In this document: positions 22,387 through 35,732 of the stretch, one piece after another
Position numbering within the stretch: position 1 is the first letter of the stretch
How the letters are laid out: every line of letters begins with the position of its first letter
Sequence record: PQ356295.1
Length of the DNA: 64,000 nt
Source: Escherichia phage KKE7M
Strand: one strand, 5' to 3'
Notes under the pieces: model-generated
Told to the model about the DNA's origin: nothing
The model's database searches: none
The model's input: the letters and a program-made list of their open reading frames with translations, nothing else
Made by a program: the position numbers and the translations under genes

Positions 22387-22747
22387 ATCAGACTCCTTTA
22401 TAAATTTACGTTTCATGCTACACATCATACAGCGTCTTTTCATCTATTACAAGAACAGCAACCTAGAAACATCATTAATAGAGGAATTAGTATAGGATTT
22501 CCCTATCAATTATTCTATATATACCTAATATTTTTAACACACCCCTTTGTACATAATATAGACAAATAAATATCTATGCCACAAAAATTTTCCGGTATAC
22601 CCGATTTATTTCGACACACCCCCTTTTCATAAGCGTAAAGCCAATAATATCAATAACTTGCCGCAAAATACTGCTCGCTTGCGAGAGGTGCTTAACGCGA
22701 TTTTTAGCGCCCCCGATTTCTGCCGACCGTCCCCCTCAAATATCAAT

Positions 22748-22776
22748 GAGAATTATTATCATTTGCATTATCATTC
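22748..22776. promoter_or_regulatory. Fur-box-like AT-rich palindrome
   Basis: GAGAATTATTATCATTTGCATTATCATTC resembles GATAATGATAATCATTATC. Confidence 0.3.
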
Positions 22777-22942
22777 AATGACTTATAAGACTTTTGATTA
22801 TTTTCTGAGCAAGAAAGGCACTACTCACAACAAAACAGATAAATTATAAGTAAATCAATGACTTGGCAAGTCTAAACATCTATATACACCTTGCCAAATG
22901 AAATGATCCTGCGTGAAATAGTGCTACCCGTGGAAGATAGCT

Positions 22943-22963
22943 GATAATGATTATCATTTGCAT
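22943..22963. promoter_or_regulatory. Fur-box-like AT-rich palindrome
   Basis: GATAATGATTATCATTTGCAT. Confidence 0.3.
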
Positions 22964-23272
22964 ATTTTCTATACTATAAAACTACCTAAAAATCAAGATA
23001 ATTCTGATTTATTGCGCTTTTAAGAGAATAGGCTCAACAAATAGGCTATAACTATGCTCAACAAATGATAGGTTATATGGGGCAATAGTATGAAAAACCA
23101 TCTATTCAGATATAAATAATTTTGCGCAATAATGGTGATATTTTTCTTGACAAGAAAGATTTCTTTGTGTTCACATAGCGTCCCCTGGAAGGTGGCGCAT
23201 TATGATCATCAATGTCATTGTTCACGATGTTTATTATTGAATAGCTTATTATATGTAGCTTATATTATAGCC

Positions 23273-23456
23273 AATGTTCCAAACATTAGCTAATAATAAC
23301 GCACCGCAACAATGTAAGGGATACAATATACCATGTATATTGTTGCGCTTGCAATTGTTGCAAGCTACATAAGCACAAATAATAACTATCGGTGATGGTT
23401 ATTATGTGGGGTGTGTAGTTGCGTTATTATTAGCCGCCTATGTGTCCGGCATAGGC
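23273..23456. other. nested inverted-repeat (multi-hairpin) structure in gene-free region
   Basis: 15-bp perfect inverted repeat GCTAATAATAACGCA / TGCGTTATTATTAGC encloses three internal hairpins; a fourth GCCTATG / CATAGGC hairpin follows. Confidence 0.5.
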
Positions 23457-23499
23457 TGCTAATGATACGCTTGCTAATTATATTTCTTGTTATAATTAT

Positions 23500-23826
23500 T
23501 GTATGAAATGATTACGGTATGAAATGATTATTTAGGTAATAGATAGTAAGGTAAAGATTAGATCATAAATAGATAGGATATTAATTATTTAGTAATGTTA
23601 CTAACAATTTAATAGTTACTTTGTGCAACAATTCGATAGATTATAGTTATAGTTTTAAAGGTTAGATAGATTATATTTAGCTTGGTAATGATTTATATTA
23701 GTTATTGTTGTTTAATATAAGGTTATCAATGAGATAGTAACAGTAAGTTATAAATAAAGGTGAAATAATTAGCTTTAATTTAGTTAGATAACTTATTATT
23801 TTATAGGTTAGATGGTCATAAGTTAA
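23500..23826. repeat. AT-rich iteron-like short repeats
   Basis: Dense reiteration of TAGATAG / GGTTAGAT / GATTATA words in about 330 bp without ORFs. Confidence 0.35.
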
Positions 23827-23899
23827 GAATGATTATCATTATTGCATTATGCAGTTTATTGCATAAATAATCAGCTATAAATGAGAATGATTATTATTT
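23827..23899. promoter_or_regulatory. pair of Fur-box-like palindromes
   Basis: GAATGATTATCATTATTGCATTATGC and GAGAATGATTATTATTT. Confidence 0.3.
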
Positions 23900-24104
23900 A
23901 AGAGGAAAGACAAGAAAAAGGCTGTTTTTGCCAGATAGTTACATGGAGAAATTAAAAATAAGCGGTCTAAAACACGTTGTAAGCGCCTTATGATCTTCAT
24001 GGTATGGTTGTTCATCTGCTCCTTGATTAGCTCGATACCGCGATCTATTCACTTTTTTCGGTGAACGTTTTTGATAGGTAAAAGCTATCATCTTTATTTA
24101 GGTA

Positions 24105-24575: not shown

Positions 24576-24604
24576 ATAATAATGTAAGCGCGATCCGGTG
24601 TCAA
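24576..24604 (-). promoter_or_regulatory. sigma70-like promoter (TTGACA-17-TATTAT), minus strand
   Basis: Consensus -35 and good -10 about 45 nt upstream of start codon. Confidence 0.5.
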
Positions 24605-24616
24605 TAAGAAAGTTAA

Positions 24617-24853
24617 TTATTTTGCATAATCAATAACAGCGCAGATTTTATCATTTACATCTTGTAAATCAAAAGCATAGGCGATCTTACCTTGCAATTT
24701 CCCACGGGTGAAACAGATACGATAAACGCCGTTTTTACTATCCTCTTCTGATTTTAGTATTTTTGCAACCGTTGCAATTAACAGATCATCAGAGTAAGCG
24801 ATAAAGCCACCACGTAAAATAGGTGATTTTTTGAGGATCATGACTTCTTTCAT
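24617..24853 (-). CDS. hypothetical protein (78 aa)
   Basis: AGGAAAAAG RBS upstream. Confidence 0.55.
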   Translation of the reverse strand: MKEVMILKKSPILRGGFIAYSDDLLIATVAKILKSEEDSKNGVYRICFTRGKLQGKIAYAFDLQDVNDKICAVIDYAK

Positions 24854-24901
24854 TTTCTTTTTCCTGTTTTCGTTTTGGGTATGTTCTACCCTCTAAAAAC
24901 A

Positions 24902-24930
24902 ATATTAAACTGCTATGATTTATCGGTCAA
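24902..24930 (-). promoter_or_regulatory. sigma70-like promoter (TTGACC-17-TAATAT), minus strand
   Basis: -35/-10 pair about 50 nt upstream of 24853 start. Confidence 0.45.
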
Positions 24931-25275
24931 TAGATGAGATTGTAAAGATTTGATAGTTTATTCCTTTGATGTTTTGTTGTTTGATAGTTATTAGCTATCA
25001 ATATATAGCGGGATCTTCCGGTGATTATCTTCCCCTGTCCCCAGGTGCCGCCCGTTCCATAATAATAATCAAAAGCAGGGTAAAAGGCAAGATAAAAAGC
25101 AAATTATTTCCTATGTGCTTTAAACGCTCTAAACAGCTTTATAACAGCTTTTTCATCCTGGTAAGGGGATTAATCATCCCTACCTTGTTTAAGCGGTTAC
25201 AGTCGGTTTTAGATGGTTTTACGCCACCTTTACGCCTATTCTTTACGTGTTGTTTCCATCGTGAAAAAAGAATAC

Positions 25276-25308
25276 AAAAAAGGGCGCTTAGTGCGCCCCT
25301 TTCTTTTA
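25276..25308. terminator. bidirectional rho-independent terminator
   Basis: GGGCGC-TTAGT-GCGCCC hairpin flanked by A-run and T-run. Confidence 0.6.
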
Positions 25309-25315
25309 CCGTGTA

Positions 25316-25705
25316 TTAATATTCGTTATAATACATCGCTAATTTTTCATCAAAAGCCGATTGACGATCAGCATACTCCCAAAACATTTCCTGATCCTGT
25401 TGGTCATCTTCATCCATCATGTTAAACTGTGCTACTTCCTGGTAAGTGATCGCCATATTATAACGATAGGTGATCTCTTCTGCGATGTTTTCCGGTAAAG
25501 ATGATTCTACACTGTCTAACAGCATATTTAACATCATTTCAGCCGCTTTTTCATCATTATCAAAGCAGTAAGCAGACCATGCCGCATGATGCTTATTCTT
25601 CATCTTTGCAATCAAGCCATTGACTAAAAAAGGCGCTACGTTGTTAACGATACCCTGTAAAGATTGGAATTTTTCAACGTTAGAAACAGAAACCAGGTTG
25701 CGCAT
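25316..25705 (-). CDS. hypothetical protein (about 129 aa)
   Basis: Start trimmed to ATG downstream of promoter-hairpin cassette; AAAAAGG RBS. Confidence 0.6.
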   Translation of the reverse strand: MRNLVSVSNVEKFQSLQGIVNNVAPFLVNGLIAKMKNKHHAAWSAYCFDNDEKAAEMMLNMLLDSVESSLPENIAEEITYRYNMAITYQEVAQFNMMDEDDQQDQEMFWEYADRQSAFDEKLAMYYNEY

Positions 25706-25728
25706 AGTATTTACCTTTTTGATTACCT

Positions 25729-25787
25729 GGCGGGAAACCATTTCCCGCCTACGTGGTAAATAATACCATACTGGGGATCGGTGTCAA
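25729..25787 (-). promoter_or_regulatory. promoter + leader-hairpin cassette 1 (TTGACA-17-ATTATT then GGCGGGAAA-TGG-TTTCCCGCC)
   Basis: On minus strand: consensus -35, -10, then perfect 9-bp GC-rich hairpin, then RBS and ATG. Confidence 0.6.
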
Positions 25788-25793
25788 TACTTT

Positions 25794-26180
25794 TTATTCA
25801 ATATAAATCAAATTATCTTCACCAATGTAAGCATGCACCGATGGCATTAATTTAGCGGCATTTGTTAGGCGGTTCGCCGTGTTAGTGGTGTATATTTCAG
25901 GGCGATCCCAAAAGCCTACGCCGTGACCGTTACGGGTAAAATGTAAATCATTCCCGATCTGGTTTGCTGTAGCGCCGTCGCTCATTGCCTCAGAGATAGC
26001 TGCAACATTGGCATTACAAAAGGCGGTCACATCGCTGGTAATACGTTTCAGGGCGCTAGAAGAAAAATCATAATCGTCTAGATTCTCAATATATTCCCCA
26101 TTGTGATCCGTCGCTGGTTCGGCAAAAATAAAGGCTTCTTTATAGCCGTTGATCATTTCGTTAATGATTTCTGTTTTCAT
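25794..26180 (-). CDS. hypothetical protein (128 aa)
   Basis: ATGA overlap with upstream gene. Confidence 0.6.
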   Translation of the reverse strand: MKTEIINEMINGYKEAFIFAEPATDHNGEYIENLDDYDFSSSALKRITSDVTAFCNANVAAISEAMSDGATANQIGNDLHFTRNGHGVGFWDRPEIYTTNTANRLTNAAKLMPSVHAYIGEDNLIYIE

Positions 26181-26392
26181 GCTGTACGCTCAACAATAAT
26201 AATGGTTTGCGGGATCTCGTTTTCTACTACTATCAAGGCTTTTTTCTGCGTGATAGATATCTTTACCCGCTTCAGCGTGGCGGTAAAGTCTTTCATTTCG
26301 TCACGTGGTGTTTTAGTGCAATACCAGATCTCAGGTTTACCTATTTGCAAGCCGCGTAAAAATTCCGTTTTACCTGTCTTATTCGTGATCAT
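26177..26392 (-). CDS. hypothetical protein (about 71 aa)
   Basis: ATG with AAGGTGA RBS. Confidence 0.5.
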   Translation of the reverse strand: MITNKTGKTEFLRGLQIGKPEIWYCTKTPRDEMKDFTATLKRVKISITQKKALIVVENEIPQTIIIVERTA

Positions 26393-26402
26393 TTGTTTCA
26401 CC

Positions 26403-26507
26403 TTATCCAATACCGTGGGAAGATAGGATCATGTTAGCCATAGTTGCAATCACTCCAACCGATAACGCCAGGCCCACTATTACAACCGTGAAAATTTTCT
26501 CTAACAT
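26403..26507 (-). CDS. tiny hydrophobic peptide, about 34 aa
   Basis: GAGGGTAGC RBS directly downstream of cassette 2; one TM helix; not in ORF track. Confidence 0.35.
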   Translation of the reverse strand: MLEKIFTVVIVGLALSVGVIATMANMILSSHGIG

Positions 26508-26525
26508 GATGCTACCCTCATTAGT

Positions 26526-26587
26526 GGGCGTTGCCTTATTGCCCCGCCCTATGTGATACATATTATCAGCTTATTAGCCGTTGTCAA
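26526..26587 (-). promoter_or_regulatory. promoter + leader-hairpin cassette 2 (TTGACA-16-TAATAT, variant hairpin)
   Basis: Same architecture as cassette 1; hairpin variant GGGCGGGGCAA...GCAACGCCC. Confidence 0.55.
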
Positions 26588-26692
26588 TTACTTTTTTAAA
26601 CTTCTTTCAAAGAGAAGATCATCGATCTCAGAAACAATAAGCGTTATCAAAGGAATAATAACCGCCGCGCACATCATGGTAAGAATAATCAT
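26588..26692 (-). CDS. tiny hydrophobic peptide, about 34 aa
   Basis: ATG downstream of cassette 3; AGAGAGAA ribosome site; not in ORF track. Confidence 0.35.
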   Translation of the reverse strand: MIILTMMCAAVIIPLITLIVSEIDDLLFERSLKK

Positions 26693-26709
26693 TTTAGTTC
26701 TCTCTATTC

Positions 26710-26769
26710 TGGCGGGAAACCATTTCCCGCCCTACGTGGTACACTTTACCAGATAACCGCATATTGTCA
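26710..26769 (-). promoter_or_regulatory. promoter + leader-hairpin cassette 3 (TTGACA-16-TAAAGT + GGCGGGAAA-TGG-TTTCCCGCC)
   Basis: Identical hairpin to cassette 1. Confidence 0.6.
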
Positions 26770-26771
26770 AA

Positions 26772-26966
26772 CTATTTTTTACAAGGGATCAGTAAACTTC
26801 TCGCTACTGCTTCACGAAAACCTTTACTTTTTATTAGATCTATTGTTGCAGGGTGACAAGTAAAAGCCTTTGACCATTTTTGATCACCTGGTTTACGGGC
26901 GAAAATGTATACTTCCCCGTCAATTTCATCCCAACGAGTATTGCTTGTTAGTTTTTTAAGCGCCAT
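26772..26966 (-). CDS. hypothetical protein (about 64 aa)
   Basis: Start trimmed to ATG preceded by AAAGAGAAATC leader downstream of cassette 4. Confidence 0.5.
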   Translation of the reverse strand: MALKKLTSNTRWDEIDGEVYIFARKPGDQKWSKAFTCHPATIDLIKSKGFREAVARSLLIPCKK

Positions 26967-26987
26967 GATGATTTCTCTTTTAGTTGT

Positions 26988-27045
26988 GAGCGGCACTATT
27001 GCCGCCCTACGCAATACATTCTACCCTATTTATAATTGTTGTCAA
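26988..27045 (-). promoter_or_regulatory. promoter + leader-hairpin cassette 4 (TTGACA-16-TAGAAT + GCGGCA-ATAG-TGCCGC)
   Basis: Hairpin variant retains pairing via compensatory changes. Confidence 0.55.
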
Positions 27046-27046
27046 A

Positions 27047-27316
27047 CTATTTTTTCAAGCTCGCCCAGTCAAAACACGGCGGGATCTCGTTAAAACTTGT
27101 GCCCTGTAAAGCACATAATTTTTTAGCAATAGCCGCCGTGACCTGGCGCTGTACGCGCGGATCTGCTACTGATTGGAGAAAGTAGGCGGCTTTATATGTG
27201 ATCATGCTTTCGCCTGTTTCCTTGTTAACATGATGCACTATTTTAGCCTTATCATCTTTTACCAGGGTGTAACCGGATTCGATGGCCTTGATTGCAACGT
27301 CCAATGATATTTTCAT
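27047..27316 (-). CDS. hypothetical protein (89 aa)
   Basis: AAAGAGATAAATC leader then ATG, directly after hairpin. Confidence 0.6.
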   Translation of the reverse strand: MKISLDVAIKAIESGYTLVKDDKAKIVHHVNKETGESMITYKAAYFLQSVADPRVQRQVTAAIAKKLCALQGTSFNEIPPCFDWASLKK

Positions 27317-27335
27317 GATTTATCTCTTTATTGAT

Positions 27336-27355
27336 GGCGGGGAATACTCCCCGCC
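27336..27355 (-). promoter_or_regulatory. intergenic leader hairpin without own promoter (GGCGGGG-AGTATT-CCCCGCC)
   Basis: GC-rich hairpin between two same-operon genes; no U-tract. Confidence 0.4.
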
Positions 27356-27362
27356 TTATTAA

Positions 27363-27533
27363 TTACTCTTCATCGTCGCCGTTGTAGTATTCAATGCCGT
27401 TTTCATCGGTTACGGTAATATTAACGCCACCGATAGCAACACGATCACGGGCAAACGTCATGGCTTCATTTAAATCTTCAGACCAAAAAATATTGTGACC
27501 TTTGCGCGATACGTAAAACATAGTCGGGATCAT
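27363..27533 (-). CDS. small protein, about 56 aa
   Basis: AGAAGAGAAACAAATC leader then ATG downstream of cassette 6; not in ORF track. Confidence 0.5.
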   Translation of the reverse strand: MIPTMFYVSRKGHNIFWSEDLNEAMTFARDRVAIGGVNITVTDENGIEYYNGDDEE

Positions 27534-27557
27534 GATTTGTTTCTCTTCTGCTGTGAG

Positions 27558-27616
27558 CGGGAAACCATTTCCCGCCCTATGTGATAAACTTTACTACGTT
27601 GTTTGCCTACTGTCAA
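27558..27616 (-). promoter_or_regulatory. promoter + leader-hairpin cassette 6 (TTGACA-17-TAAAGT + GCGGGAAA-TGG-TTTCCCGC)
   Basis: Same architecture. Confidence 0.6.
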
Positions 27617-27617
27617 A

Positions 27618-27902
27618 TTATTTTTTAATGTTTTGCCCTACAAAATTGATCACATCTTTAAGCTGTTTCTCAGTCATGATCGTGCCTGGTAGTTCCTCTT
27701 TGATTTCTTGCGGTAAATAGATATTACCGCGCCAGGTTAATAAACAACCGTTTTGATCTTCGCAGATAGAATAAGAGAAGATCCACTCATTATCATTCTC
27801 AAGCTCCCAAAAGCACAAAAAATCTTCTTTCCCTAAGTTTTCAACGGTTAAGCATAAGCCGCGACGTGCTGCATAGTTGGAAAGTGCTTTTGTGATCTTC
27901 AT
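27618..27902 (-). CDS. hypothetical protein (94 aa)
   Basis: AGAAGAGATAAGAT leader then ATG downstream of cassette 7. Confidence 0.6.
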   Translation of the reverse strand: MKITKALSNYAARRGLCLTVENLGKEDFLCFWELENDNEWIFSYSICEDQNGCLLTWRGNIYLPQEIKEELPGTIMTEKQLKDVINFVGQNIKK

Positions 27903-27921
27903 ATCTTATCTCTTCTGTTAA

Positions 27922-27985
27922 GGCGGGAAAACCATTTCCCCGCTCTATGAGATACAATATACCCCTTATCAGGTGTGCTGTCAAT
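27922..27985 (-). promoter_or_regulatory. promoter + leader-hairpin cassette 7 (TTGACA-17-TATATT + GCGGGGAAA-TGG-TTTTCCCGCC)
   Basis: Same architecture, 1-nt hairpin variant. Confidence 0.6.
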
Positions 27986-28308
27986 CAATAATCTTTAATA
28001 TTTTCCACATTTACAAAAGTGTGTTTATTTTCTAAGTTTTCGCCGTACCATTGCCCAATGTTGATTTCTGCGGTGCGCAACCAGGACATGCCGCGTTCTA
28101 TCTTTTTGCTTGCAATGTCGATCCGGCTTTTACATAGTGCTTTCGCTTGCAATGTAAAAACACTATTGCCCTGTAATGCTTCCAGGTCATCATGTGCAAG
28201 GCGATACTCTTTAAAGCCTGATTCTATCATTTCAATAGCATCAAGTAAACGCGCGCGATGATAGAAAAAATCAGAGTTATCCAAATAAACACCGATCACA
28301 GATTTCAT
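27985..28308 (-). CDS. hypothetical protein (about 107 aa)
   Basis: Start trimmed to ATG with AAAAGGG RBS. Confidence 0.6.
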   Translation of the reverse strand: MKSVIGVYLDNSDFFYHRARLLDAIEMIESGFKEYRLAHDDLEALQGNSVFTLQAKALCKSRIDIASKKIERGMSWLRTAEINIGQWYGENLENKHTFVNVENIKDY

Positions 28309-28329
28309 AATTTTACCCTTTTGTTTGCG

Positions 28330-28379
28330 GCCTTTGCCGTTTTCAAGATATAGTTTAAAGCATAACAAAAAATTGTCAA
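28330..28379 (-). promoter_or_regulatory. sigma70-like promoter (TTGACA ... TAAACT), minus strand
   Basis: Consensus -35 with plausible -10 upstream of 28308 start; no GGCGGG hairpin. Confidence 0.4.
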
Positions 28380-28408
28380 GCCTTTAAAGCGTACAACTAT
28401 AAAACCTA

Positions 28409-28528
28409 TTAAAACACAATGTATAACAACATGGCTATAGTAGCAATACAACATAAAGCCATGCTTGTTTTCCTTCCTTCCTCGTATGCTGGATTTATTA
28501 CGCTATATTGTACGGGAATAATTTTCAT
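28409..28528 (-). CDS. tiny hydrophobic peptide, about 39 aa
   Basis: AAGGAAACAGC RBS; not in ORF track. Confidence 0.3.
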   Translation of the reverse strand: MKIIPVQYSVINPAYEEGRKTSMALCCIATIAMLLYIVF

Positions 28529-28537
28529 GCTGTTTCC

Positions 28538-28633
28538 TTAATGTCTTAAAACGTGGTTTACAATAGAAACAAGTATACAGAAGAAAAAAGATCCTGACAA
28601 TAAGATCCCGAAAAATAAATGTAAATAGGGCAT
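28538..28633 (-). CDS. tiny hydrophobic peptide, 31 aa
   Basis: AAGGAGTAAAACC RBS 2 nt after upstream stop; codon-by-codon check gives MPYLHLFFGILLSGSFFFCILVSIVNHVLRH. Confidence 0.35.
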   Translation of the reverse strand: MPYLHLFFGILLSGSFFFCILVSIVNHVLRH

Positions 28634-28637
28634 GGTT

Positions 28638-28940
28638 TTACTCCTTAAAAAAATCATTGACAATTAAACTGATAACGCCCAGCACCAGATCACCAGGTAG
28701 CGCCGCGCTTTCGTTGTTGCTTGTTTGCACTTCCTCACTAGTACCAGCATGATAGATTGCATGGTAAGCAATAGTATAATAACCTTTCGTTATTTCTTTA
28801 AGATTAATGATTAGCACGTTATTTGTTTCATCTTGAAACAATTTAGCGGTGATAGTATTGTTTTCTTTTACACTATCGACTTTTATTGATGGATCATTTA
28901 CACCAGAAAAAAGAAAAAACGTTTTAGCTATGCCGTTCAT
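28638..28940 (-). CDS. hypothetical protein (100 aa)
   Basis: AAAGGAGAAC RBS. Confidence 0.6.
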   Translation of the reverse strand: MNGIAKTFFLFSGVNDPSIKVDSVKENNTITAKLFQDETNNVLIINLKEITKGYYTIAYHAIYHAGTSEEVQTSNNESAALPGDLVLGVISLIVNDFFKE

Positions 28941-28962
28941 GTAGTTCTCCTTTGTTGTGTGT

Positions 28963-28991
28963 ATCTTATAACGTGCTTTCTATGTTGTCAA
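28963..28991 (-). promoter_or_regulatory. sigma70-like promoter (TTGACA-17-TAAGAT), minus strand
   Basis: -35 overlaps stop codon of upstream gene. Confidence 0.45.
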
Positions 28992-29389
28992 TCTTTTATT
29001 TCGGTGCATTTTGCTAGGGTATACGTTGCAAGTGCTGACACTAGTTTTTCATTGTTACGATCTGCGGCTGTACTGTGTACTTTTTGGATACTTTTTAACC
29101 ACGGTGTAAAATTTTGAGTAGTGAGCACACTGGTAATAATTTCACATGGCACGTTTTCATTTAAGCCATTAACAATAGATTTATCTATTTTTGCCGTTAA
29201 TTGTGTAACAGCACCATAAGCGATCATGTGTGAATCCTCCATGATTTCATCGGGGATCGCATTATTAATGATCATGACGTTTTCCATTGCATCAACGGCG
29301 CTTAATTCTGCTACTGTGGAGGATATCGCCGCGTGAGATGTTCCAACCATGCCAAAAGAGATTAAACCAGCGATCAATAATTTTTTCAT
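28988..29389 (-). CDS. putative secreted/periplasmic protein with signal peptide (about 133 aa)
   Basis: MKKLLIAGLISFGMVGTSHA signal-peptide-like N-terminus; GAGGCAAGAA RBS. Confidence 0.6.
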   Translation of the reverse strand: MKKLLIAGLISFGMVGTSHAAISSTVAELSAVDAMENVMIINNAIPDEIMEDSHMIAYGAVTQLTAKIDKSIVNGLNENVPCEIITSVLTTQNFTPWLKSIQKVHSTAADRNNEKLVSALATYTLAKCTEIKD

Positions 29390-29397
29390 TTCTTGCC

Positions 29398-29580
29398 TCA
29401 TATATGTTTTATTGAGATTATATTGTCACTATATACAACGTTTTTCAACGTGTCAATAAAAATTTTATTGTCTTCAATCCCCAGGATCACGCCGCTAGTT
29501 ATAAAGCCATATTGATCACGATATCTGGCGCATAACCTTTGCCCCTGGGCTAGTGCCTTGCTTATTTCGTCTAATTTCAT
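29398..29580 (-). CDS. hypothetical protein (about 60 aa)
   Basis: Internal ATG preceded by CAGGAGC RBS. Confidence 0.5.
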   Translation of the reverse strand: MKLDEISKALAQGQRLCARYRDQYGFITSGVILGIEDNKIFIDTLKNVVYSDNIISIKHI

Positions 29581-29667
29581 TTTTAAAGCTCCTGTAAAGC
29601 CGTCTAACGTTGATTTATAGGCTTGCCCTGGCGTTACCATTGCCTATGGGTAACAAGCCTCTATATA

Positions 29668-29700
29668 AGCTAAAAGGGCGCTTATTGCGCCCTTTTTGTT
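29668..29700. terminator. bidirectional rho-independent terminator
   Basis: AGGGCGC-TTATT-GCGCCCT hairpin flanked by A-run and T-run. Confidence 0.55.
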
Positions 29701-29836
29701 ATTCGTTCCAGTGTCTTTTTGTGCTGCGATCTCTTTTTGTTTTGTTCCGCTTATCGCCTTTCTTGGTAATCTCTTCGTTCCAATTTTTACGCGCCTTGCT
29801 GCGGTTGAATTTTTCGATCTGCTGTGATGCGTTCAT
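29699..29836 (-). CDS. small highly basic protein, about 45 aa
   Basis: AAGAGGAAAAAAC RBS; K/R-rich; not in ORF track. Confidence 0.4.
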   Translation of the reverse strand: MNASQQIEKFNRSKARKNWNEEITKKGDKRNKTKRDRSTKRHWNE

Positions 29837-29851
29837 GTTTTTTCCTCTTAA

Positions 29852-30211
29852 TTACGCAACGTTATGCTGTTTTGCCAGGGTTACAATCATGCTTGCAATA
29901 TATAACCAATAATTTTCCCTCTCACGGGTAACGGTTGTTTCTTTGCTTGTTTCTTTTATGTACTTCCATTCAATTAACAAGTGATCGATCTCGTTATAAT
30001 CAAAAGCAATATTGACTTCTGACGGTAAACCTTGTAACCATGAGGCTATTGCCTTGATCACGTTATAATTGTAACGTTTTTGATTATCGGGATACCAGTA
30101 TTCAGAGTTAAAACGGCGCATCAGTTCGGTGATCTTTTCTTTTTCGGTTGTAGTACCATCAAAAGAAATAGCCGACACAATGTAAGTTTTAATTGCTTTT
30201 ACTGATTTCAT
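29852..30211 (-). CDS. hypothetical protein (119 aa)
   Basis: AAAGAGATAAGATT leader then ATG downstream of cassette 8. Confidence 0.6.
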   Translation of the reverse strand: MKSVKAIKTYIVSAISFDGTTTEKEKITELMRRFNSEYWYPDNQKRYNYNVIKAIASWLQGLPSEVNIAFDYNEIDHLLIEWKYIKETSKETTVTRERENYWLYIASMIVTLAKQHNVA

Positions 30212-30231
30212 AATCTTATCTCTTTATTGAT

Positions 30232-30290
30232 GGCGGGAAACCATTTCCCGCCGTTGTTGTTACTTTACTTATAAATGATGCTACTGTCAA
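30232..30290 (-). promoter_or_regulatory. promoter + leader-hairpin cassette 8 (TTGACA-17-TAAAGT + GGCGGGAAA-TGG-TTTCCCGCC)
   Basis: Identical hairpin. Confidence 0.6.
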
Positions 30291-30297
30291 GCGAATA

Positions 30298-30468
30298 TTA
30301 TTTATTTTTTAACGTTAATGTTCCCAGCTTATCAGCGTGACGCAGACCAGGAAAGATCCATTTTCCTGATTCATCTTTCACCGGGGCTTTAAGCGTAGCG
30401 CCCAGGTTGGCGGCGTTAACTTTACGTGCAACGTTGCGAGCGGCTTCACGGGTGGCGAAAGTGATCAT
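30298..30468 (-). CDS. small protein, about 56 aa
   Basis: AGAAGAGGAAACATC leader then ATG downstream of cassette 9; not in ORF track. Confidence 0.45.
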   Translation of the reverse strand: MITFATREAARNVARKVNAANLGATLKAPVKDESGKWIFPGLRHADKLGTLTLKNK

Positions 30469-30491
30469 GATGTTTCCTCTTCTCTTTGTTA

Positions 30492-30554
30492 GGCGGTGGG
30501 CTATTCCACCGCCTTAATGAATATAATTTACTTTATTGATGGCCCTGGAGTCAA
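30492..30554 (-). promoter_or_regulatory. promoter + leader-hairpin cassette 9 (TTGACT-18-TAAATT + GGCGGTGG-AATAGC-CCACCGCC)
   Basis: Variant hairpin with compensatory substitutions; -35 embedded in a second short palindrome. Confidence 0.5.
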
Positions 30555-30572
30555 GGCCATCTAAAAATAAAT

Positions 30573-30914
30573 TTACTCGTTTTCTTCCAGCTCTGAAAGA
30601 TCTTCTTTCACTTCTTCGAGCTCTGTCTGCAATTCTTGGTACTCTTCATCGTCCTCAATATCCAGGCTGCCGATGTAGTCGCTAAATCCGCAGCGGTAAG
30701 CGATAGGATCTAACTCCTTGAGGATACGCGACGGAAGAAAAGAAATGTCTCCGATCATAATTTCGCCGTAGATCTCGTCTAACCATTCATCATAGTTTTC
30801 GTCGTACTTGTCCTCGTCGATTTCAAAGTTATCGATCTTGTTCTCAAGGTCTGCGATCTGTTTTTTCAGCGCGGCGATCTGCATAGCTTTTTCTGCGGCG
30901 GTCATAGTAGTCAT
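30573..30914 (-). CDS. acidic coiled-coil protein (113 aa)
   Basis: AAAGGAGAAAAC RBS; Asp/Glu-rich with heptad-like pattern. Confidence 0.6.
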   Translation of the reverse strand: MTTMTAAEKAMQIAALKKQIADLENKIDNFEIDEDKYDENYDEWLDEIYGEIMIGDISFLPSRILKELDPIAYRCGFSDYIGSLDIEDDEEYQELQTELEEVKEDLSELEENE

Positions 30915-30939
30915 GGTGTTTTCTCCTTTTGTGTATTCT

Positions 30940-30994
30940 GGGAAGTTTTCCCGTTTACGTGTTTAAGTATATCGATTTTAGTTATCTTGTCAAT
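30940..30994 (-). promoter_or_regulatory. sigma70-like promoter (TTGACA-16-TATACT) with degenerate leader hairpin
   Basis: GGGAA-AAC-TTCCC mini-hairpin downstream of -10. Confidence 0.45.
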
Positions 30995-31001
30995 ATTATT
31001 T

Positions 31002-31229
31002 TTAGTTTAACTGATCCAGGCACAACAAGCGATCAACATTTAGATCGGTTAGGCTAATCGTTGGCACTTGGTAGGCTTCGATGTACTCAACGCTCGACCA
31101 TTGCCCAAAGTTAGCGACCGCCCAGCTATTCAAGGAGGAGTGAAGATCATCCCCTTTCTTCTCGGTGATAACTGCTACTACCTGGGATATTCCAACCGTG
31201 CCGGATACGCGAACAATAACGATAGCCAT
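31002..31229 (-). CDS. hypothetical protein (75 aa)
   Basis: AAAGAAAGG leader then ATG downstream of cassette 10. Confidence 0.55.
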   Translation of the reverse strand: MAIVIVRVSGTVGISQVVAVITEKKGDDLHSSLNSWAVANFGQWSSVEYIEAYQVPTISLTDLNVDRLLCLDQLN

Positions 31230-31251
31230 AATGTTAACCTTTCTTTGATTT

Positions 31252-31311
31252 GGCGGGAAACCATTTCCCGCCCTATGCGATAAACTATACCAGATTAAAA
31301 AACGTTGTCAA
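31252..31311 (-). promoter_or_regulatory. promoter + leader-hairpin cassette 10 (TTGACA-16-TATAGT + GGCGGGAAA-TGG-TTTCCCGCC)
   Basis: Identical hairpin. Confidence 0.6.
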
Positions 31312-31320
31312 CTGCTTTTA

Positions 31321-31560
31321 TTACATTCCTACCATAGCGGCGCGGATACTGGTTTTACTGAATTTATAGCCATCTGGCGTAGTATTTTGGCCCATTTCGT
31401 TAAGTAGTGACATCATTTCACGCGCGGCGTTATCTTTATTGTTGTTCACGGCTATAAATTCTTTTGCCATATTATAAAAACCTGGATCGTTATTAATCCA
31501 AAGGCTTACATTCCAATGAGTTTTATTTTTGTGACCGTTGTACATTTTAGATTTAGCCAT
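31321..31560 (-). CDS. hypothetical protein (79 aa)
   Basis: AAAAGAGATTAACATC leader then ATG downstream of cassette 11. Confidence 0.6.
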   Translation of the reverse strand: MAKSKMYNGHKNKTHWNVSLWINNDPGFYNMAKEFIAVNNNKDNAAREMMSLLNEMGQNTTPDGYKFSKTSIRAAMVGM

Positions 31561-31585
31561 GATGTTAATCTCTTTTTCAGTGAGG

Positions 31586-31642
31586 CGGGAACTATTCCCG
31601 CTCTCGATATAAGTATTATATGCTTTTTATTCGTGCTGTCAA
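31586..31642 (-). promoter_or_regulatory. promoter + leader-hairpin cassette 11 (TTGACA-16-TATAAT + GCGGGAA-TAGT-TCCCGC)
   Basis: Perfect consensus -35/-10; variant hairpin. Confidence 0.6.
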
Positions 31643-31648
31643 TGCTTT

Positions 31649-32014
31649 TTATAAATCTTTTTTGCGTTTAACATCGCTTGCATGACTGTATACAGCGATC
31701 CCATTGTCACGGCAAAAACGGGAAAGGTAAGCATAATTTGAAAAGTCTTTACCTTCCAGGTTGATAACCTTGCTAAACTCTTCCAGGGCAACGGTATCAA
31801 AATGATCACCATAACCATATTGAAACGGAACGTTAACGACTTCAATCAGTTTACCGCCGATCTCAACGTCAACCATCAAAGAGAAATAAGTATTACCATA
31901 CGACTTTTGAAACCAGCGACGGGCGCTAATATGTACCGCTTCAATGCTGGATAGCTCAATTTTAGCAGTGTTAGCCAGGGTAGCATAAGCAGAAACATTG
32001 ATATTTTTAGCCAT
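31649..32014 (-). CDS. hypothetical protein (121 aa)
   Basis: AAAAGAGATTAAAGAC leader then ATG. Confidence 0.6.
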   Translation of the reverse strand: MAKNINVSAYATLANTAKIELSSIEAVHISARRWFQKSYGNTYFSLMVDVEIGGKLIEVVNVPFQYGYGDHFDTVALEEFSKVINLEGKDFSNYAYLSRFCRDNGIAVYSHASDVKRKKDL

Positions 32015-32040
32015 AGTCTTTAATCTCTTTTGATTAGTTA

Positions 32041-32090
32041 GGAGTATTCCCGATAAAAGTTATTATGCTTGTGCTATCGTTCGTTGTCAA
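32041..32090 (-). promoter_or_regulatory. sigma70-like promoter (TTGACA-17-CATAAT)
   Basis: -35/-10 upstream of 32014 start; hairpin degenerate. Confidence 0.45.
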
Positions 32091-32109
32091 TAGCACAAGA
32101 CTAAAACTT

Positions 32110-32289
32110 TTAACGATAATCATCATAGGCTTTATTGACCTGGCGAATATAGCATTCAAAAGCTAGATCAATAGATTTATATTCACGGATATAATCACCA
32201 TAGGAAACCACATACATTTCTATAGCTTCCTCATATGCCAGGATGATAGAATCTAAACCTACGATCTCAGTCTTTGCAATAATAGCCAT
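32110..32289 (-). CDS. small protein, about 59 aa
   Basis: CTAAGGAATAAAAGC RBS; not in ORF track; coordinates approximate. Confidence 0.45.
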   Translation of the reverse strand: MAIIAKTEIVGLDSIILAYEEAIEMYVVSYGDYIREYKSIDLAFECYIRQVNKAYDDYR

Positions 32290-32348
32290 GCTTTTATTCC
32301 TTAGTAATGTTTCAATCTATATAAGCATTATAGCTTACTGATTTCAGG

Positions 32349-32432
32349 TGTCAAGTGATTTTTTATTTCACCTTATGGGGCGTTGCCCCGCTTTATGTGG
32401 TACATATTACGGGGCTTATTTGCATATGTCAA
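32349..32432 (-). promoter_or_regulatory. tandem promoters (TTGACA-17-TAATAT and TTGACA-16-TATAAT) flanking a GGGGC-AAC-GCCCC hairpin
   Basis: Two consensus promoters 70 bp apart on minus strand upstream of 32289 start. Confidence 0.5.
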
Positions 32433-32435
32433 GCC

Positions 32436-32990
32436 TTACACAATGCAATTTTCATAATTTTTTAGGGCTTGTCTTTTTTCCTCTTCTGTCGGCATGTATG
32501 GCTGGATCTCTTCCTCTTCCAGAGTAGGCATGATTTCTTCCTCTTCCTCCTGGTCGCCCTGGTCTTCCTCTTGCGCTATGGTAACAAGTTTATTGATCTT
32601 CTCCTGGGCTTTAATCAATTTTGCATCTAGCACCATTTTAGCGGTGTTGTATACAGTCCAGGCCATGCGCTTTTCTTCGTATGCCTTATCTAGTGCGGCT
32701 AATTTAGCGGGATACTCTTCCAACACCTTAAAAGCCGGATCAATGTTGTACAAGGGATTATTTTTAGCGTCATCGCTTGGATCTGCGGCGCTTGCAATGT
32801 CAGCGTTACCATTCGCCAGCCATCCAGGACGAACGGATCGCGTCCTGGTGTTGCCGTTGCTCTTTGCCGCTCGATTTCCTATCTGCTCCCCGCTATACCC
32901 TACCATGTGATCGATCATGTCATCTGGTATTATGCGCGGATCATTTGCGTCATGCTTTACCCAGGACTGGATCACATATTCACGCCCCAT
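32436..32990 (-). CDS. hypothetical protein with acidic C-terminal region (184 aa)
   Basis: AGAAGAGG RBS upstream. Confidence 0.6.
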   Translation of the reverse strand: MGREYVIQSWVKHDANDPRIIPDDMIDHMVGYSGEQIGNRAAKSNGNTRTRSVRPGWLANGNADIASAADPSDDAKNNPLYNIDPAFKVLEEYPAKLAALDKAYEEKRMAWTVYNTAKMVLDAKLIKAQEKINKLVTIAQEEDQGDQEEEEEIMPTLEEEEIQPYMPTEEEKRQALKNYENCIV

Positions 32991-32991
32991 G

Positions 32992-33252
32992 CTAGTTCGC
33001 CTCTTCTGTTAGTAGTTTACATACCTTAAACATGCTTGCAGCGTCTTTTGACGGTAGCCAGCCTATTCGATACACTCCAGGATCTGGATTAGTTACATCA
33101 GTCAGTTGCGCGTTGCGATGATTAAAAATAGTGTAACCGCCGCCAGCACGGGGATAAACATTATCTTTAAACCTGATAGCGTATCTCGCCAGGTCGAACG
33201 TTGTAGCATGTTCAAAAGCGATCACATTATCAAAAACTTTTAGAAAAAACAA
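32992..33252 (-). CDS. hypothetical protein (86 aa), TTG start
   Basis: GGGGAGGA RBS 5 nt before TTG. Confidence 0.5.
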   Translation of the reverse strand: MFFLKVFDNVIAFEHATTFDLARYAIRFKDNVYPRAGGGYTIFNHRNAQLTDVTNPDPGVYRIGWLPSKDAASMFKVCKLLTEEAN

Positions 33253-33254
33253 GA

Positions 33255-33401
33255 TTATCCTCCCCAGCGTTTAAAGCCCGTTGCACGGTTATTTTTTAGC
33301 TCTCGTTTTAGTCTCTTGCAACGGTTTACAAGTGCAAACCGTGCCGGAGTCGTAACAGTAGCGCCGTTTTTGGTATGAATACTCATTACATATTGTTTCA
33401 T
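33255..33401 (-). CDS. small basic protein, about 48 aa
   Basis: AGGATAAAACTTT then ATG downstream of cassette 13; not in ORF track. Confidence 0.4.
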   Translation of the reverse strand: MKQYVMSIHTKNGATVTTPARFALVNRCKRLKRELKNNRATGFKRWGG

Positions 33402-33420
33402 AAAGTTTTATCCTATATAA

Positions 33421-33473
33421 GCGGGAACAATTCCCGCTTTAAGATAGCTTATCAGGTTTTAGTGCAATGTCAA
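33421..33473 (-). promoter_or_regulatory. promoter + leader-hairpin cassette 13 (TTGACA-16-TAAGCT + GCGGGAA-TTGT-TCCCGC)
   Basis: Same architecture, variant loop. Confidence 0.55.
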
Positions 33474-33479
33474 CCGTTT

Positions 33480-33842
33480 TTATTCGTAAATTTTACCGCT
33501 TTCTACCCATACCATAACACGGCGCATGTTATCCCATGCATCTTGTTGCAGATTTAAGGCATGCAATTCTTCCGTGGTGCTCATACCTAGAACGGGCTTG
33601 CTATATGTTACAAAGAGATCGCCAGCATATTCATAAGCCAGGGTAAGATCACATTGAATCATCTTTTTAATCATAGCATCAAGCATCATATTAGCGGCAT
33701 GTTGATCACGTTTCAGCGGTAACGTTGCGATCTGTGTGCGATAGCTTTCGATCCGTGCATCCACTGCATCACGCGAAAGGTTTTTCACGTCATCGCGGAA
33801 AGATACCAGATTAAACATGATAGTATTGATTTGCTTGCTCAT
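33480..33842 (-). CDS. hypothetical protein (120 aa)
   Basis: AAAGAAAGGGTAACACA leader then ATG downstream of cassette 14. Confidence 0.6.
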   Translation of the reverse strand: MSKQINTIMFNLVSFRDDVKNLSRDAVDARIESYRTQIATLPLKRDQHAANMMLDAMIKKMIQCDLTLAYEYAGDLFVTYSKPVLGMSTTEELHALNLQQDAWDNMRRVMVWVESGKIYE

Positions 33843-33864
33843 TGTGTTACCCTTTCTTTGATTT

Positions 33865-33924
33865 GGCGGGAAACCATTTCCCGCCTTATGTGGTATATAT
33901 TACCAGATTATTTTTCAGTGTCAA
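33865..33924 (-). promoter_or_regulatory. promoter + leader-hairpin cassette 14 (TTGACA-16-TAATAT + GGCGGGAAA-TGG-TTTCCCGCC)
   Basis: Identical hairpin. Confidence 0.6.
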
Positions 33925-33927
33925 GCC

Positions 33928-34200
33928 TTAAAACAAAAATGCTATATCTTGCGCTTTTAGTGTAGTGTCGATCATTTTCGGGCTTTTATAATCGACAAAG
34001 CGCGCGGTTTTTTCAATAACGAAGCCGAGGTAATCTTGTTTATTGAAATCACATTCTTTTTTAAATGTTTCCCGTGCCACTGTGATCGCTGCGTCCAGGG
34101 ATAAACGTCCATCAATATTGATGTTAGCGAAAGATCCGCCACCGCGCATAGGTTTACCAGTGATACCCTTTACGATCATTGATGCGCTATATGATGCCAT
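33928..34200 (-). CDS. hypothetical protein (90 aa)
   Basis: AGAAGAGAGAAATAATC leader then ATG downstream of cassette 15. Confidence 0.6.
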   Translation of the reverse strand: MASYSASMIVKGITGKPMRGGGSFANINIDGRLSLDAAITVARETFKKECDFNKQDYLGFVIEKTARFVDYKSPKMIDTTLKAQDIAFLF

Positions 34201-34224
34201 GATTATTTCTCTCTTCTGTTATGA

Positions 34225-34280
34225 GCGGCACTATTGCCGCCCTATGTGATACATCTTATCAGATTAAAAAACGTTGTCAA
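34225..34280 (-). promoter_or_regulatory. promoter + leader-hairpin cassette 15 (TTGACA + GCGGCA-ATAG-TGCCGC)
   Basis: Same variant hairpin as cassette 4. Confidence 0.55.
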
Positions 34281-34289
34281 GAATATTTT

Positions 34290-34385
34290 TTAGAAAATAA
34301 CAACCGCTACTACAATCCAAAATGGAACGGCTAGAATGATAGCGTTAATCGTTCCAACCGTCAAGCTGTTTTCTTTCTTGATCAT
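34290..34385 (-). CDS. tiny hydrophobic peptide, 31 aa
   Basis: First ORF after the outermost promoter of the array; weak RBS; not in ORF track. Confidence 0.25.
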   Translation of the reverse strand: MIKKENSLTVGTINAIILAVPFWIVVAVVIF

Positions 34386-34512
34386 CGTTATCAACCTTTT
34401 ATAAGTAATGTTATTGTGACGGTGGATTGTGGAGATCCTCACCTTTGCCCGTCCTGCATTGCACCCGCCTTTTATTTATTGTCGTTGTGCCTTGCCCCCC
34501 TCGACAAGATGA

Positions 34513-34541
34513 ATAATATGTTATTACCCTGGTAACGTCAA
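34513..34541 (-). promoter_or_regulatory. sigma70-like promoter (TTGACG-17-TATTAT), outermost promoter of reverse array
   Basis: -35/-10 pair followed by about 120-nt GC-rich leader. Confidence 0.4.
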
Positions 34542-34950: not shown

Positions 34951-35180
34951 TTTTACATACAGAAGAGGAAGCGCCACCCCCACGGCGTAAAGGCGGGGCT
35001 AACATACCAGGGGGGCACTGGTTGGAAGGTTGATCGCCGGTAGCTCGTCTAAAATAAATTTGTAAAGAAATGTAAAGATAAAAATAATCGCTTGCTTTTG
35101 TTGTTGGTTATGCTATTCTTATTGTATGGCGAGGGGACACGGGAGCGCGAGACAAACACCACCCCTGCGCGTTATTCTCT

Positions 35181-35292
35181 AAATGAGAAAAATTCTCATT
35201 TGCTAACGATTCTCATTCTCTTACTGAGAATGATTATCACTTACATAATTAAATGATAATGATTCTCATTTACAAATGAGAATGATTATCAT
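35181..35292. promoter_or_regulatory. cluster of Fur-box-like palindromes
   Basis: AAATGAGAAAAATTCTCATTT, GAGAATGATTATCAC and AAATGATAATGATTCTCATTTACAAATGAGAATGATTATCAT. Confidence 0.35.
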
Positions 35293-35313
35293 ACGCACAC
35301 CTATAAAAACACG

Positions 35314-35520
35314 AAATTGAACTTTTCATTTTTGATTTTTCTACGGAAAAAGGCAAAAAAACTTTAAATAAACTGGGGAATTTTTAAAAAATTGAAGTTT
35401 TCATTTTCAAAATCTGGATAGAAATACATACAAAAACTTTAAATAATTTTGACCAAACTTGAACTTTTCATTTTCTAAATTTGTACCCAAAAATCTGTAA
35501 AAACTTTAAATAATTTTGTA
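35314..35520. repeat. three tandem direct repeats of about 67 bp
   Basis: Units start at about 35314, 35387 and 35455; each is AAAtTGAAcTTTTCATTTT ... AAAAACTTTAAATAA. Confidence 0.6.
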
Positions 35521-35732
35521 CTTTTTATAAAAATGATTTTACTGTTCTGTTATAAGTAGTAGTTAAGAGATAGTATGTCTTTTAAAGATCAGATACCATA
35601 GTCCAACAAACAAATTAAATACTTTATTAACAGGGTATAGAATACTACTTACTCTGGATATATTATTCAGAGGGTGAATTTCCGTACATGAAACCCACAC
35701 CCCTTTTTATAAAAATAAAAATTTTCAAAATA

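Follow-up and report, generated by a model that had tools for sequence, protein, structure and literature searches.

Micro-ORFs in a promoter-hairpin cassette array of a phi92-like Escherichia phage: nine of ten are probably selected coding genes

Ten micro-ORFs in a mosaic phage region

The minus strand of a 64,000-nt stretch of Escherichia phage KKE7M (sequence record PQ356295.1; hereafter the window) carries ten micro open reading frames (micro-ORFs) set within an array of promoter-hairpin cassettes, of which five are hydrophobic (h34a, h34b, h31a, h39 and h31b) and five are soluble (s56a, s45, s56b, s59 and s48; Table 1). All ten had been proposed in a first-pass annotation made from the sequence alone, and all were re-derived exactly and with their stop codons (10/10). 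On the comparative sequence evidence set out below we consider it highly probable that this is the hyperplastic early array of a phi92-like E. coli myovirus in which nine of the ten micro-ORFs are selected coding genes, likely with accessory roles in host takeover, exclusion or anti-defence, and arranged as modules bounded by cassettes. The tenth, h31a, cannot be called.

Of the 297 phage records matched by a 9-kb query around the ten frames, the best were the Escherichia phages Antha (93% of the query at 96.2% identity), ESCO8 and BME3. Since the annotated relatives belong to the Stephanstirmvirinae, genus Justusliebigvirus (phi92-like), the window is assigned by sequence similarity to a Justusliebigvirus E. 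coli myovirus. More distant matches came from Phapecoctavirus (~80-85% identity), with scattered stretches of similarity to rV5-like Vequintavirus and, further afield, to jumbo phages. Relatives share the region in a patchy manner: 80% or more of the query is covered in just 5 of the 297, and we therefore regard this early region as mosaic. Three neighbour-gene scans of IMG/VR returned 2-3 close relatives each, and GenBank phage records were used instead. Among the matches were about 20 GenBank records titled ‘Campylobacter phage’ (e.g. MG065639 A150, 146 kb) that are ~95% identical to E. coli phi92-like or rV5-like phages; these are probably mislabelled or contaminant assemblies. An abundance of small genes is known from the equivalent region of rV5, where 88 mainly small ORFs were described (Kropinski et al. 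2013, PMC3606486).

The claimed ribosome sites were borne out by a Shine-Dalgarno-like motif 6-10 nt upstream of every start (10/10), weak for h31b and moderate for s48. Longer ORFs can be read from upstream starts for h34a (26403-26561), h31a (28538-28663) and h31b (34290-34442), and in all three the internal ATG picked in the first-pass annotation is the one that has the Shine-Dalgarno-like motif. The upstream starts were rejected, as they either lack a ribosome site or lie 5' of the predicted transcription start; that of h34a falls inside the -10 hexamer, and is therefore not on the transcript from that promoter.

Table 1. Micro-ORFs, promoters and hairpins of the array, with synonymous : non-synonymous substitution counts
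Feature	Coordinates	Strand	Description	Substitutions in claimed frame
h34a	26403..26507	-	34-aa single-helix membrane peptide (predicted); GAGGGT ribosome site	12 : 10, p=0.003, omega 0.29; other frames 2:13, 3:19
Cassette of h34a	26508..26587	-	TTGACA-16-TAATAT; hairpin GGGCG..GC/GC..CGCCC; leader -15.5 kcal/mol, z=-3.15	
h34b	26588..26692	-	34-aa peptide; N-terminal membrane helix (predicted), SEIDD...basic tail; AGAGAGA ribosome site	
Cassette of h34b	26693..26770	-	TTGACA-16-TAAAGT + GGGCGGGAAAUGGUUUCCCGCC; -15.4 kcal/mol, z=-2.4	
s56a	27363..27533	-	56-aa acidic soluble protein; identical to phAPEC8 protein (G377_gp254)	12 : 2, p=3e-7, omega ~0.04
Cassette of s56a	27534..27616	-	Hairpin -15.8 kcal/mol, z=-3.96	
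h39	28409..28528	-	39-aa tail-anchored membrane peptide (predicted); TAAGGA ribosome site	26.7 : 63.3, p=0.015
h31a	28538..28633	-	31-codon hydrophobic frame; coding status doubtful	
Promoter-like element inside h31a	28572-28600	-	TTGTCA-17-TATACT; could drive h39	
Operon promoter for 100-aa gene/h31a/h39	28963..28991	-	TTGACA-17-TAAGAT; no hairpin	
Terminator-like hairpin	29672..29696	.	AAAAGGGCGC...GCGCCCTTTT, directly 3' of s45; strand unassigned	
s45	29699..29836	-	45-aa very basic protein (pI 10.8); Phi92_gp237 cluster	28.2 : 43.8, p=9e-6
Operon promoter for 119-aa gene/s45	30262..30290	-	Cassette hairpin downstream	
s56b	30298..30468	-	56-aa basic soluble protein; identical to Phi92_gp235	28.5 : 6.5, p=1e-11, omega ~0.08
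Cassette of s56b	30469..30554	-	Hairpin -18.7 kcal/mol, z=-4.62; second hairpin over -35	
s59	32110..32289	-	59-aa acidic protein; common to rV5-like phages	35.5 : 30.5 (expected 21% synonymous), p=2e-9
Tandem promoters of s59	32290..32432	-	Distal TTGACA-17-TAATAT with hairpin; proximal perfect TTGACA-16-TATAAT without hairpin	
s48	33255..33401	-	48-aa very basic protein (pI 11.7); identical to Phi92_gp228	6 : 0, p=2e-4, omega 0
Cassette of s48	33402..33473	-	Hairpin -16.3 kcal/mol, z=-4.25	
h31b	34290..34385	-	31-aa peptide; polar N-terminus, C-terminal membrane helix (predicted; tail-anchored)	25.7 : 23.3, p=6e-6; other frames without excess
Upstream region of h31b	34386..34541	-	Degenerate; TTGACG-17-TATTAT, 127-nt leader, weak AAAGG ribosome site	

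Evidence that the frames are coding

Length alone is weak evidence for coding here, as at a stop probability of 0.068 per codon (that of this composition) the chance of an open frame after an ATG is 9-11% for 31-34 codons and ~2% for 56-59 codons. We therefore turned to a comparative test across homologous regions, which were gathered by local tblastn from 12 annotated relatives and five IMG/VR loci (two related contigs). The distinct alternative codons in each column were scored as synonymous or non-synonymous and set against the expected share of synonymous sites, with the other two frames serving as control. For h34a, h31b, h39, s56a, s45, s56b, s59 and s48 the claimed frame had a clearly greater synonymous share than either control frame and was the sole frame with a synonymous excess (Table 1), and homologs with open frames over the aligned stretch reach down to 42-60% amino-acid identity. 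Codon usage of the five soluble ORFs scored 0.13-0.37 bits per codon versus 0.08-0.35 in most of the neighbouring known genes, two of the 17 neighbours scoring approximately zero. In four of the soluble ORFs the claimed frame was the best of the six by this measure, and in s45 it nearly ties with one antisense frame.

The earlier argument that these micro-ORFs are not noise is therefore supported for nine of them, which behave as protein-coding genes on the strength of in-frame purifying selection or of annotated distant homologs, but not for h31a (28538-28633), which is possibly a chance T-rich frame. Given their position behind strong sigma-70 promoters, the nine are also likely to be expressed early.

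Prior annotation of the micro-ORFs

As the first-pass annotation had stated, the frames are missing from the ORF track that accompanied it, because that track has a 60-aa cutoff. They are hardly new to the databases, though: public collections already contain nine of the ten exact sequences, and GenBank lists eight of these as ‘hypothetical protein’. s48, s56b, s56a, h31b, h34a and h34b each match a phage-derived deposit exactly, and s59 is also found under phage names. Eight of the ten match a PHROG family over most of the protein (14631, 7482, 10979, 20874, 2490, 13689, 9374 and 8393; E-values of 1e-8 to 4e-45), and in a Pfam scan of all ten frames s45 gave the sole match. The finding is thus already known, in the sense that the proteins have been deposited and grouped, and is correct but ordinary.

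Annotation of these genes in individual genomes is uneven. In many of the sampled records h34a, h31b and h39 were left unannotated, and some pipelines put overlapping ORFs in the wrong frame in their stead. In a close relative, Antha (PP925826; 4120-4324, 5061-5210 and 10836-10949), s56a is cut to its last 32 codons, and the h39 and h31b homologs are replaced by calls made across promoter cassettes, namely a 49-aa ORF in the wrong frame and a 37-aa ORF on the plus strand. The Antha calls for s56a, h39 and h31b are probable mis-annotations.

Architecture of the promoter-hairpin cassettes

The promoter-hairpin cassette that had been described from the sequence alone is real. Within 24576-34280 the pattern TTGAC(A/T)-N16-18-TAnnnT occurs 21 times on the minus strand versus 0 times on the plus strand, and these promoters are close to the sigma-70 consensus, with several agreeing at 11-12 of 12 positions. 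In most of them a GC-rich hairpin of about -14 to -19 kcal/mol begins 9-14 nt past the -10 element, GGGCGGGAAAUGGUUUCCCGCC being the commonest, and a ribosome site rich in purines (AGAGA, AAGAGG) and the ATG come next, so that the leader measures ~43-56 nt. The -35 element usually lies directly against the stop codon of the gene before it. When compared with dinucleotide shuffles, six leader or intercistronic hairpins had z-scores of -2.4 to -5.0. At least 10 different stem sequences retain the same pairing at the same position, an argument that it is the structure itself that is conserved. No U-tract follows the cassette hairpins in the sense direction, and we therefore read them as 5'-terminal mRNA structures and not as intrinsic terminators of those mRNAs.

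Two further hairpins depart from this layout. One, at 27336-27355 within the 27317-27362 interval between s56a and an 89-aa gene, is of the cassette type and comes with a ribosome site but without a promoter (-17.8 kcal/mol, z=-5.0), which suggests that the hairpin has a role of its own, for example in RNA processing or stability, independent of promoters. The other, ATGGCCTTGACTCCAGGGCCAT at 30535-30560, is an extra hairpin that overlaps the -35 element of the s56b promoter; a stem-loop over the -35 is the geometry of one subclass of the promoter-early stem-loop (PeSL) cassettes known from T4-type phages (PMC2839356).

The micro-ORFs had further been described as driven by such cassettes. This applies to h34a, h34b, s56a, s56b and s48, which lie directly behind one, but four of the ten are not driven by a promoter-hairpin cassette of their own here. 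s59 sits behind a perfect-consensus promoter that lacks a hairpin and has an unstructured leader (z=+0.65), the hairpin-bearing promoter being 78 nt further upstream. Three more lie further down an operon, each with a ribosome site of its own: s45 comes second, behind a 119-aa gene, and h31a and h39 come second and third behind a 100-aa gene (a Phi92_gp240 homolog). The leader of h31b, within its degenerate upstream region, is without significant structure (z=-0.44); Phapecoctavirus homologs of h31b have a canonical promoter-hairpin-AAGAGG cassette in front.

h31a as a possible chance frame

Some of the frames could be chance open frames in regulatory DNA, which in practice would concern h31a, a T-rich stretch that may serve as an internal promoter for h39. 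Its promoter-like hexamers are TTGACA-17-TATGCT in most relatives, and they contain three of the four positions that vary. In Phapecoctavirus, a promoter-hairpin cassette occupies exactly the h31a slot ahead of the h39 homolog, and h31a is absent. T-rich sequence readily gives an accidental hydrophobic ORF, and a frame of 31 codons stays open by chance in 11% of cases. The homology record is thin as well: h31a has zero PHROG matches, its exact sequence is absent from a set of 15 billion proteins, and a HMMER scan of 1.84 billion representatives gave two weak matches only, a repetitive hydrophobic protein and a 33-aa chimera. The exact sequence occurs in only 14 phage records, all phi92-like, and is annotated in 0 of the 14; a variant of 93.5% identity is annotated in Antha and cardinal. 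Its substitution ratio (2 synonymous : 3 non-synonymous) is not significant.

Several features nonetheless speak for translation of h31a. A strong ribosome site (AAGGAG) lies 7 nt ahead of its ATG, and the packing is operon-like, with the ATG 4 nt past the upstream stop and the end of the frame 9 nt ahead of the h39 start. The frame is unbroken in all four sequence variants, and the two residues that vary do so conservatively (S to T, I to M). We put the chances that h31a is translated at about even. As an account of the array the chance-frame explanation is improbable, as it is contradicted by the frame-specific selection and distant homologs of the other nine ORFs, which we continue to read as genes.

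The 33-aa chimera (P0125, from a Logan/ENA metagenome) joins residues 1-20 of h31a to the C-terminus of the 128-aa gene of the h34a operon. It maps to ~28574-28633 of the window joined with ~25794-25830, implying a deletion of ~2.7 kb in some relative, with a junction outside any cassette.

Soluble micro-proteins

The soluble group divides by charge into the basic s45, s56b and s48 (pI 10.7-11.7) and the acidic s56a and s59. s56a (phrog_20874, E=4e-45) is found on 399 contigs and has a codon-usage score of 0.34, best in the claimed frame, with a narrow set of homologs (4 clusters). Its AlphaFold2 model (pLDDT 85) has a beta-beta-alpha-beta-beta fold that gave weak matches to common folds, and in BFVD matched uncharacterised viral proteins only. 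Its nearest known counterparts would be the T4 Dmd antitoxin and further small inhibitors from phages (ClpS-like beta-beta-alpha-beta-beta folds, AcrIF9). An assignment of s56a as a Dmd-like antitoxin was not adopted, being unsupported by these matches.

For s45 the Pfam match is to PF08200 (T7 gene 1.1), at 43.2 bits against a gathering cutoff of 21 (E=5.5e-11, profile positions 2-40 of 40). The protein also belongs to phrog_2490, and its Phapecoctavirus homologs are 58-60% identical. Its exact sequence has been deposited solely from an E. coli assembly, and the 90% cluster holds Phi92_gp237. s56b (phrog_13689, E=3e-36) is present on 389 contigs, and its homologs, likewise a narrow set, form 17 clusters that include Klebsiella phages and keep 20 invariant columns. 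s59 (phrog_9374, E=2e-38) is annotated in many phages, with 97% identity in slur16 (Vequintavirus). s48 (phrog_8393, E=5e-21) is found on 346 contigs. PDB sequence searches with s56a, s56b, s59 and s48 gave no match under E=0.1.

s48 is the first cistron of its transcript and is followed by an 86-aa gp229 homolog (32992-33252), with which it shares one 90%-identity cluster, phrog_8393 being 111 aa. We considered whether the two might be one split gene and dropped the idea, as they have no mutual sequence similarity and are annotated separately in phi92; a fused or read-through s48/gp229 variant may exist somewhere.

In first-cistron position s48 resembles h34a, which is followed in its operon by a 71-aa and a 128-aa gene, and s56a. 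These three could act as leader or upstream ORFs, whose translation would tune the next gene and whose peptide would be functionless. For all three the next cistron lies within 2-47 nt with no intervening promoter, and the promoterless hairpin and ribosome site between s56a and its neighbour would fit such coupling. Against this, amino-acid constraint is strong in each (omega in Table 1), and the same proteins recur in other gene neighbourhoods elsewhere, for example h34a, like s59, in the rV5-like slur16. The confident compact fold predicted for s56a also argues for a functional protein. We give the leader explanation very little credence, and favor the reading of all three as protein-coding genes in their own right.

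Hydrophobic peptides

Each of the five hydrophobic frames has one segment whose best 17-residue Kyte-Doolittle mean falls within 2.50-3.02, corresponding to one predicted membrane helix. h34a (best mean 2.72; phrog_14631, E=2e-22) occurs in 228 phage records of the Stephanstirmvirinae and Vequintavirinae and extends down to 53-59% identity in rV5, where it is annotated; its exact sequence is in GenBank and its 90% cluster holds FV3_00160. h39 (phrog_10979 ‘membrane protein’, E=1e-8) is present in 73 phage records, with annotated Phapecoctavirus homologs of 42-48% identity that each have their own cassette. The 113 phage records that carry h31b extend to Klebsiella phages, where identity is 52%; h31b has zero PHROG matches. 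It is annotated as 31 aa in Ec-G1, 3A1 and phages of the BASEL collection (exact match bas62_0109), and its stop codon is followed after 12 nt by the next -35 element.

It is plausible, judging from these predicted helices, that the hydrophobic peptides target membrane complexes, as the first-pass annotation had proposed. They might instead act as toxins that damage the membrane, or set the time of lysis, in the manner of type I toxins or holins, and not modulate specific host complexes. A single predicted membrane helix within 31-39 aa, together with a short charged tail, is a layout that resembles small membrane toxins generally. Their location, however, is an early array behind strong sigma-70 promoters and not a lysis cassette, and membrane damage this early would abort the infection. 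In addition, the conserved non-hydrophobic motifs SEIDD (h34b) and NPA..EG.K (h39) suggest specific contacts. We thus hold a toxin or lysis role to be most unlikely, and prefer that of a modulator acting at the membrane.

Module exchange at h34b

h34b (phrog_7482, E=6.5e-10), whose stop codon abuts the next -35 element, offers a clear case of gene gain or loss in the array. Antha and Paula lack exactly 183 bp that are present in the window and in BME3, corresponding to the h34b gene plus one cassette, and at the Antha/Paula junction the h34b promoter is joined to the h34a hairpin at the shared GGGCGG arm and a few preceding bases. As the junction falls in the cassette repeat, h34b was gained or lost by homologous recombination there, and on this sequence comparison we regard h34b and its cassette as a 183-bp mobile module, the one clear case of gain or loss through the cassette repeat. 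Members of the family occur in four subfamilies (Stephanstirmvirinae, Vequintavirinae, Ounavirinae and Queuovirinae). Ten close relatives have an identical h34b, and homologs of 44-56% identity are annotated as ORFs in Mooglevirus (Ounavirinae), Seuratvirus (Queuovirinae) and the Vequintavirinae. When aligned, five sequences have in common a predicted membrane helix that contains a conserved Pro, a stretch of the form S/T-E-I/V-D/C/M-D, which reads SEIDD in three of them, and a basic tail.

Although speculative, and in our estimation rather unlikely, it is attractive to think that the hydrophobic micro-genes, most clearly the h34b family, are single-gene modules that hop between subfamilies by recombination at the hairpin arms and that encode early membrane effectors with a specific host target, with s56a, which is under extreme constraint, acting in parallel as a Dmd-like inhibitor of a host toxin. 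The target could be, for example, a transporter, a defence system anchored in the membrane, or the path by which a superinfecting phage enters.

A model for the array and its weighing

The reading that we favor is that host sigma-70 RNA polymerase would fire the ~20 near-consensus minus-strand promoters just after infection. Most of the resulting transcripts would begin with a stable GC hairpin which, judging from its position, might protect the 5' end from decay and/or attenuate read-through, and a ribosome site and short gene would follow downstream of the hairpin. The nine micro-ORFs would in this way supply four soluble proteins (48-59 aa) without known relatives, the T7 gene 1.1 homolog s45, and four single-helix peptides (31-39 aa) that presumably act in the inner membrane. 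As is usual for early ORFans, their likely role would be that of non-essential accessory factors in host takeover, exclusion or anti-defence, and the genes would form modules bounded by the cassette repeat and gained or lost by recombination there, with h34b as the case in hand.

Several points weigh against this reading. In the substitution test the distinct codon variants are pooled for comparison with the window sequence and phylogeny is ignored, and the substitution counts for h34a, h39 and s48 are small. Codon usage fails to separate the hydrophobic frames from decoys. For h34b the close relatives are protein-identical and the one DNA comparison offers a single base difference, so that its support comes from weak pairwise E-values (1e-3 to 0.9) and the PHROG profile match. 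No function could be derived from the sequence or fold searches (PDB sequence, structure, BFVD), T7 gp1.1, the one relative with a name, being itself of unknown function (PMC7064336). Finally, a search of the literature on the Stephanstirmvirinae and Vequintavirinae found no transcriptome, Ribo-seq or infected-cell proteome.

Non-coding stretches flanking the array

Over the whole window there were zero Rfam family matches and zero tRNAs. This includes a low-GC (0.33) stretch of ~1.6 kb at 22450-24100 with almost no ORFs of at least 40 aa, which is reminiscent of the 2.6-kb ‘non-coding’ block reported in rV5 (Kropinski et al. 2013, PMC3606486).

Palindromes similar to Fur boxes lie in the non-coding stretches on either side of the early array (22943-22961, 23825-23843 and 35255-35273), along with a cluster at 35180-35295 of inverted repeats of the TGAGAATGATTATCA type. 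With up to 3 mismatches allowed, the E. coli Fur consensus, which we take to be GATAATGATAATCATTATC, gave 4 matches versus 0.04 expected, a hint of iron- or Fur-linked regulation or of Fur titration. Adjoining the cluster are three direct repeats of ~70-79 nt (35314-35534; 65-72% identity, spacing 67-75 nt) that are iteron-like and may represent an origin or another protein-binding array.

Significance and comparison with known systems

Large lytic phages commonly carry arrays of small early ORFans under strong promoters, and the discovery value of this one is low. Its practical value is that in regions of this kind about one gene in four escapes an ORF track with a 60-aa floor, while public annotation of these peptides is inconsistent or in the wrong frame, and that phi92-like phages, whose relatives include isolates obtained for phage therapy, offer nine well-supported and cheaply testable micro-protein candidates for host takeover or anti-defence.

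Of the individual proteins, s45 can be compared with T7 gene 1.1 (PF08200), which it resembles in being of similar size, very basic and early, with a full-profile match at twice the gathering score; it differs in residing in a large myovirus and not in a T7-like podovirus.

The array as a whole is best compared with the PeSL cassettes of the T4-type phages RB49 and phi1 (Arbiol et al. 2010, PMC2839356; Comeau et al. 2014, PMC4122927). Both combine a strong sigma-70-like promoter with a G/C-rich stem-loop, a Shine-Dalgarno sequence and a start codon; in both, the stop of the upstream gene lies just ahead of the -35 and the cassettes are concentrated in a hyperplastic region before small ORFans; and both show modular gain and loss by recombination between cassettes (here the one clear case of h34b). 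A stem-loop 3' of the -10 is itself known from one PeSL subclass (PMC2839356). The differences are that the lineage here is the Stephanstirmvirinae and not T4-type, and that the stem-loop lies nearly always 3' of the -10, inside the transcript, and without a U-tract. Stabilisation of the 5' end is thus no less probable here than the terminator activity shown for the PeSL stem-loops of T4-type phages (PMC2839356; PMC4122927). In view of its non-T4 lineage, the array is therefore PeSL-like in its working and not part of the same element family, and its exchange of modules would extend a mechanism of T4-type phages to another lineage of myoviruses.

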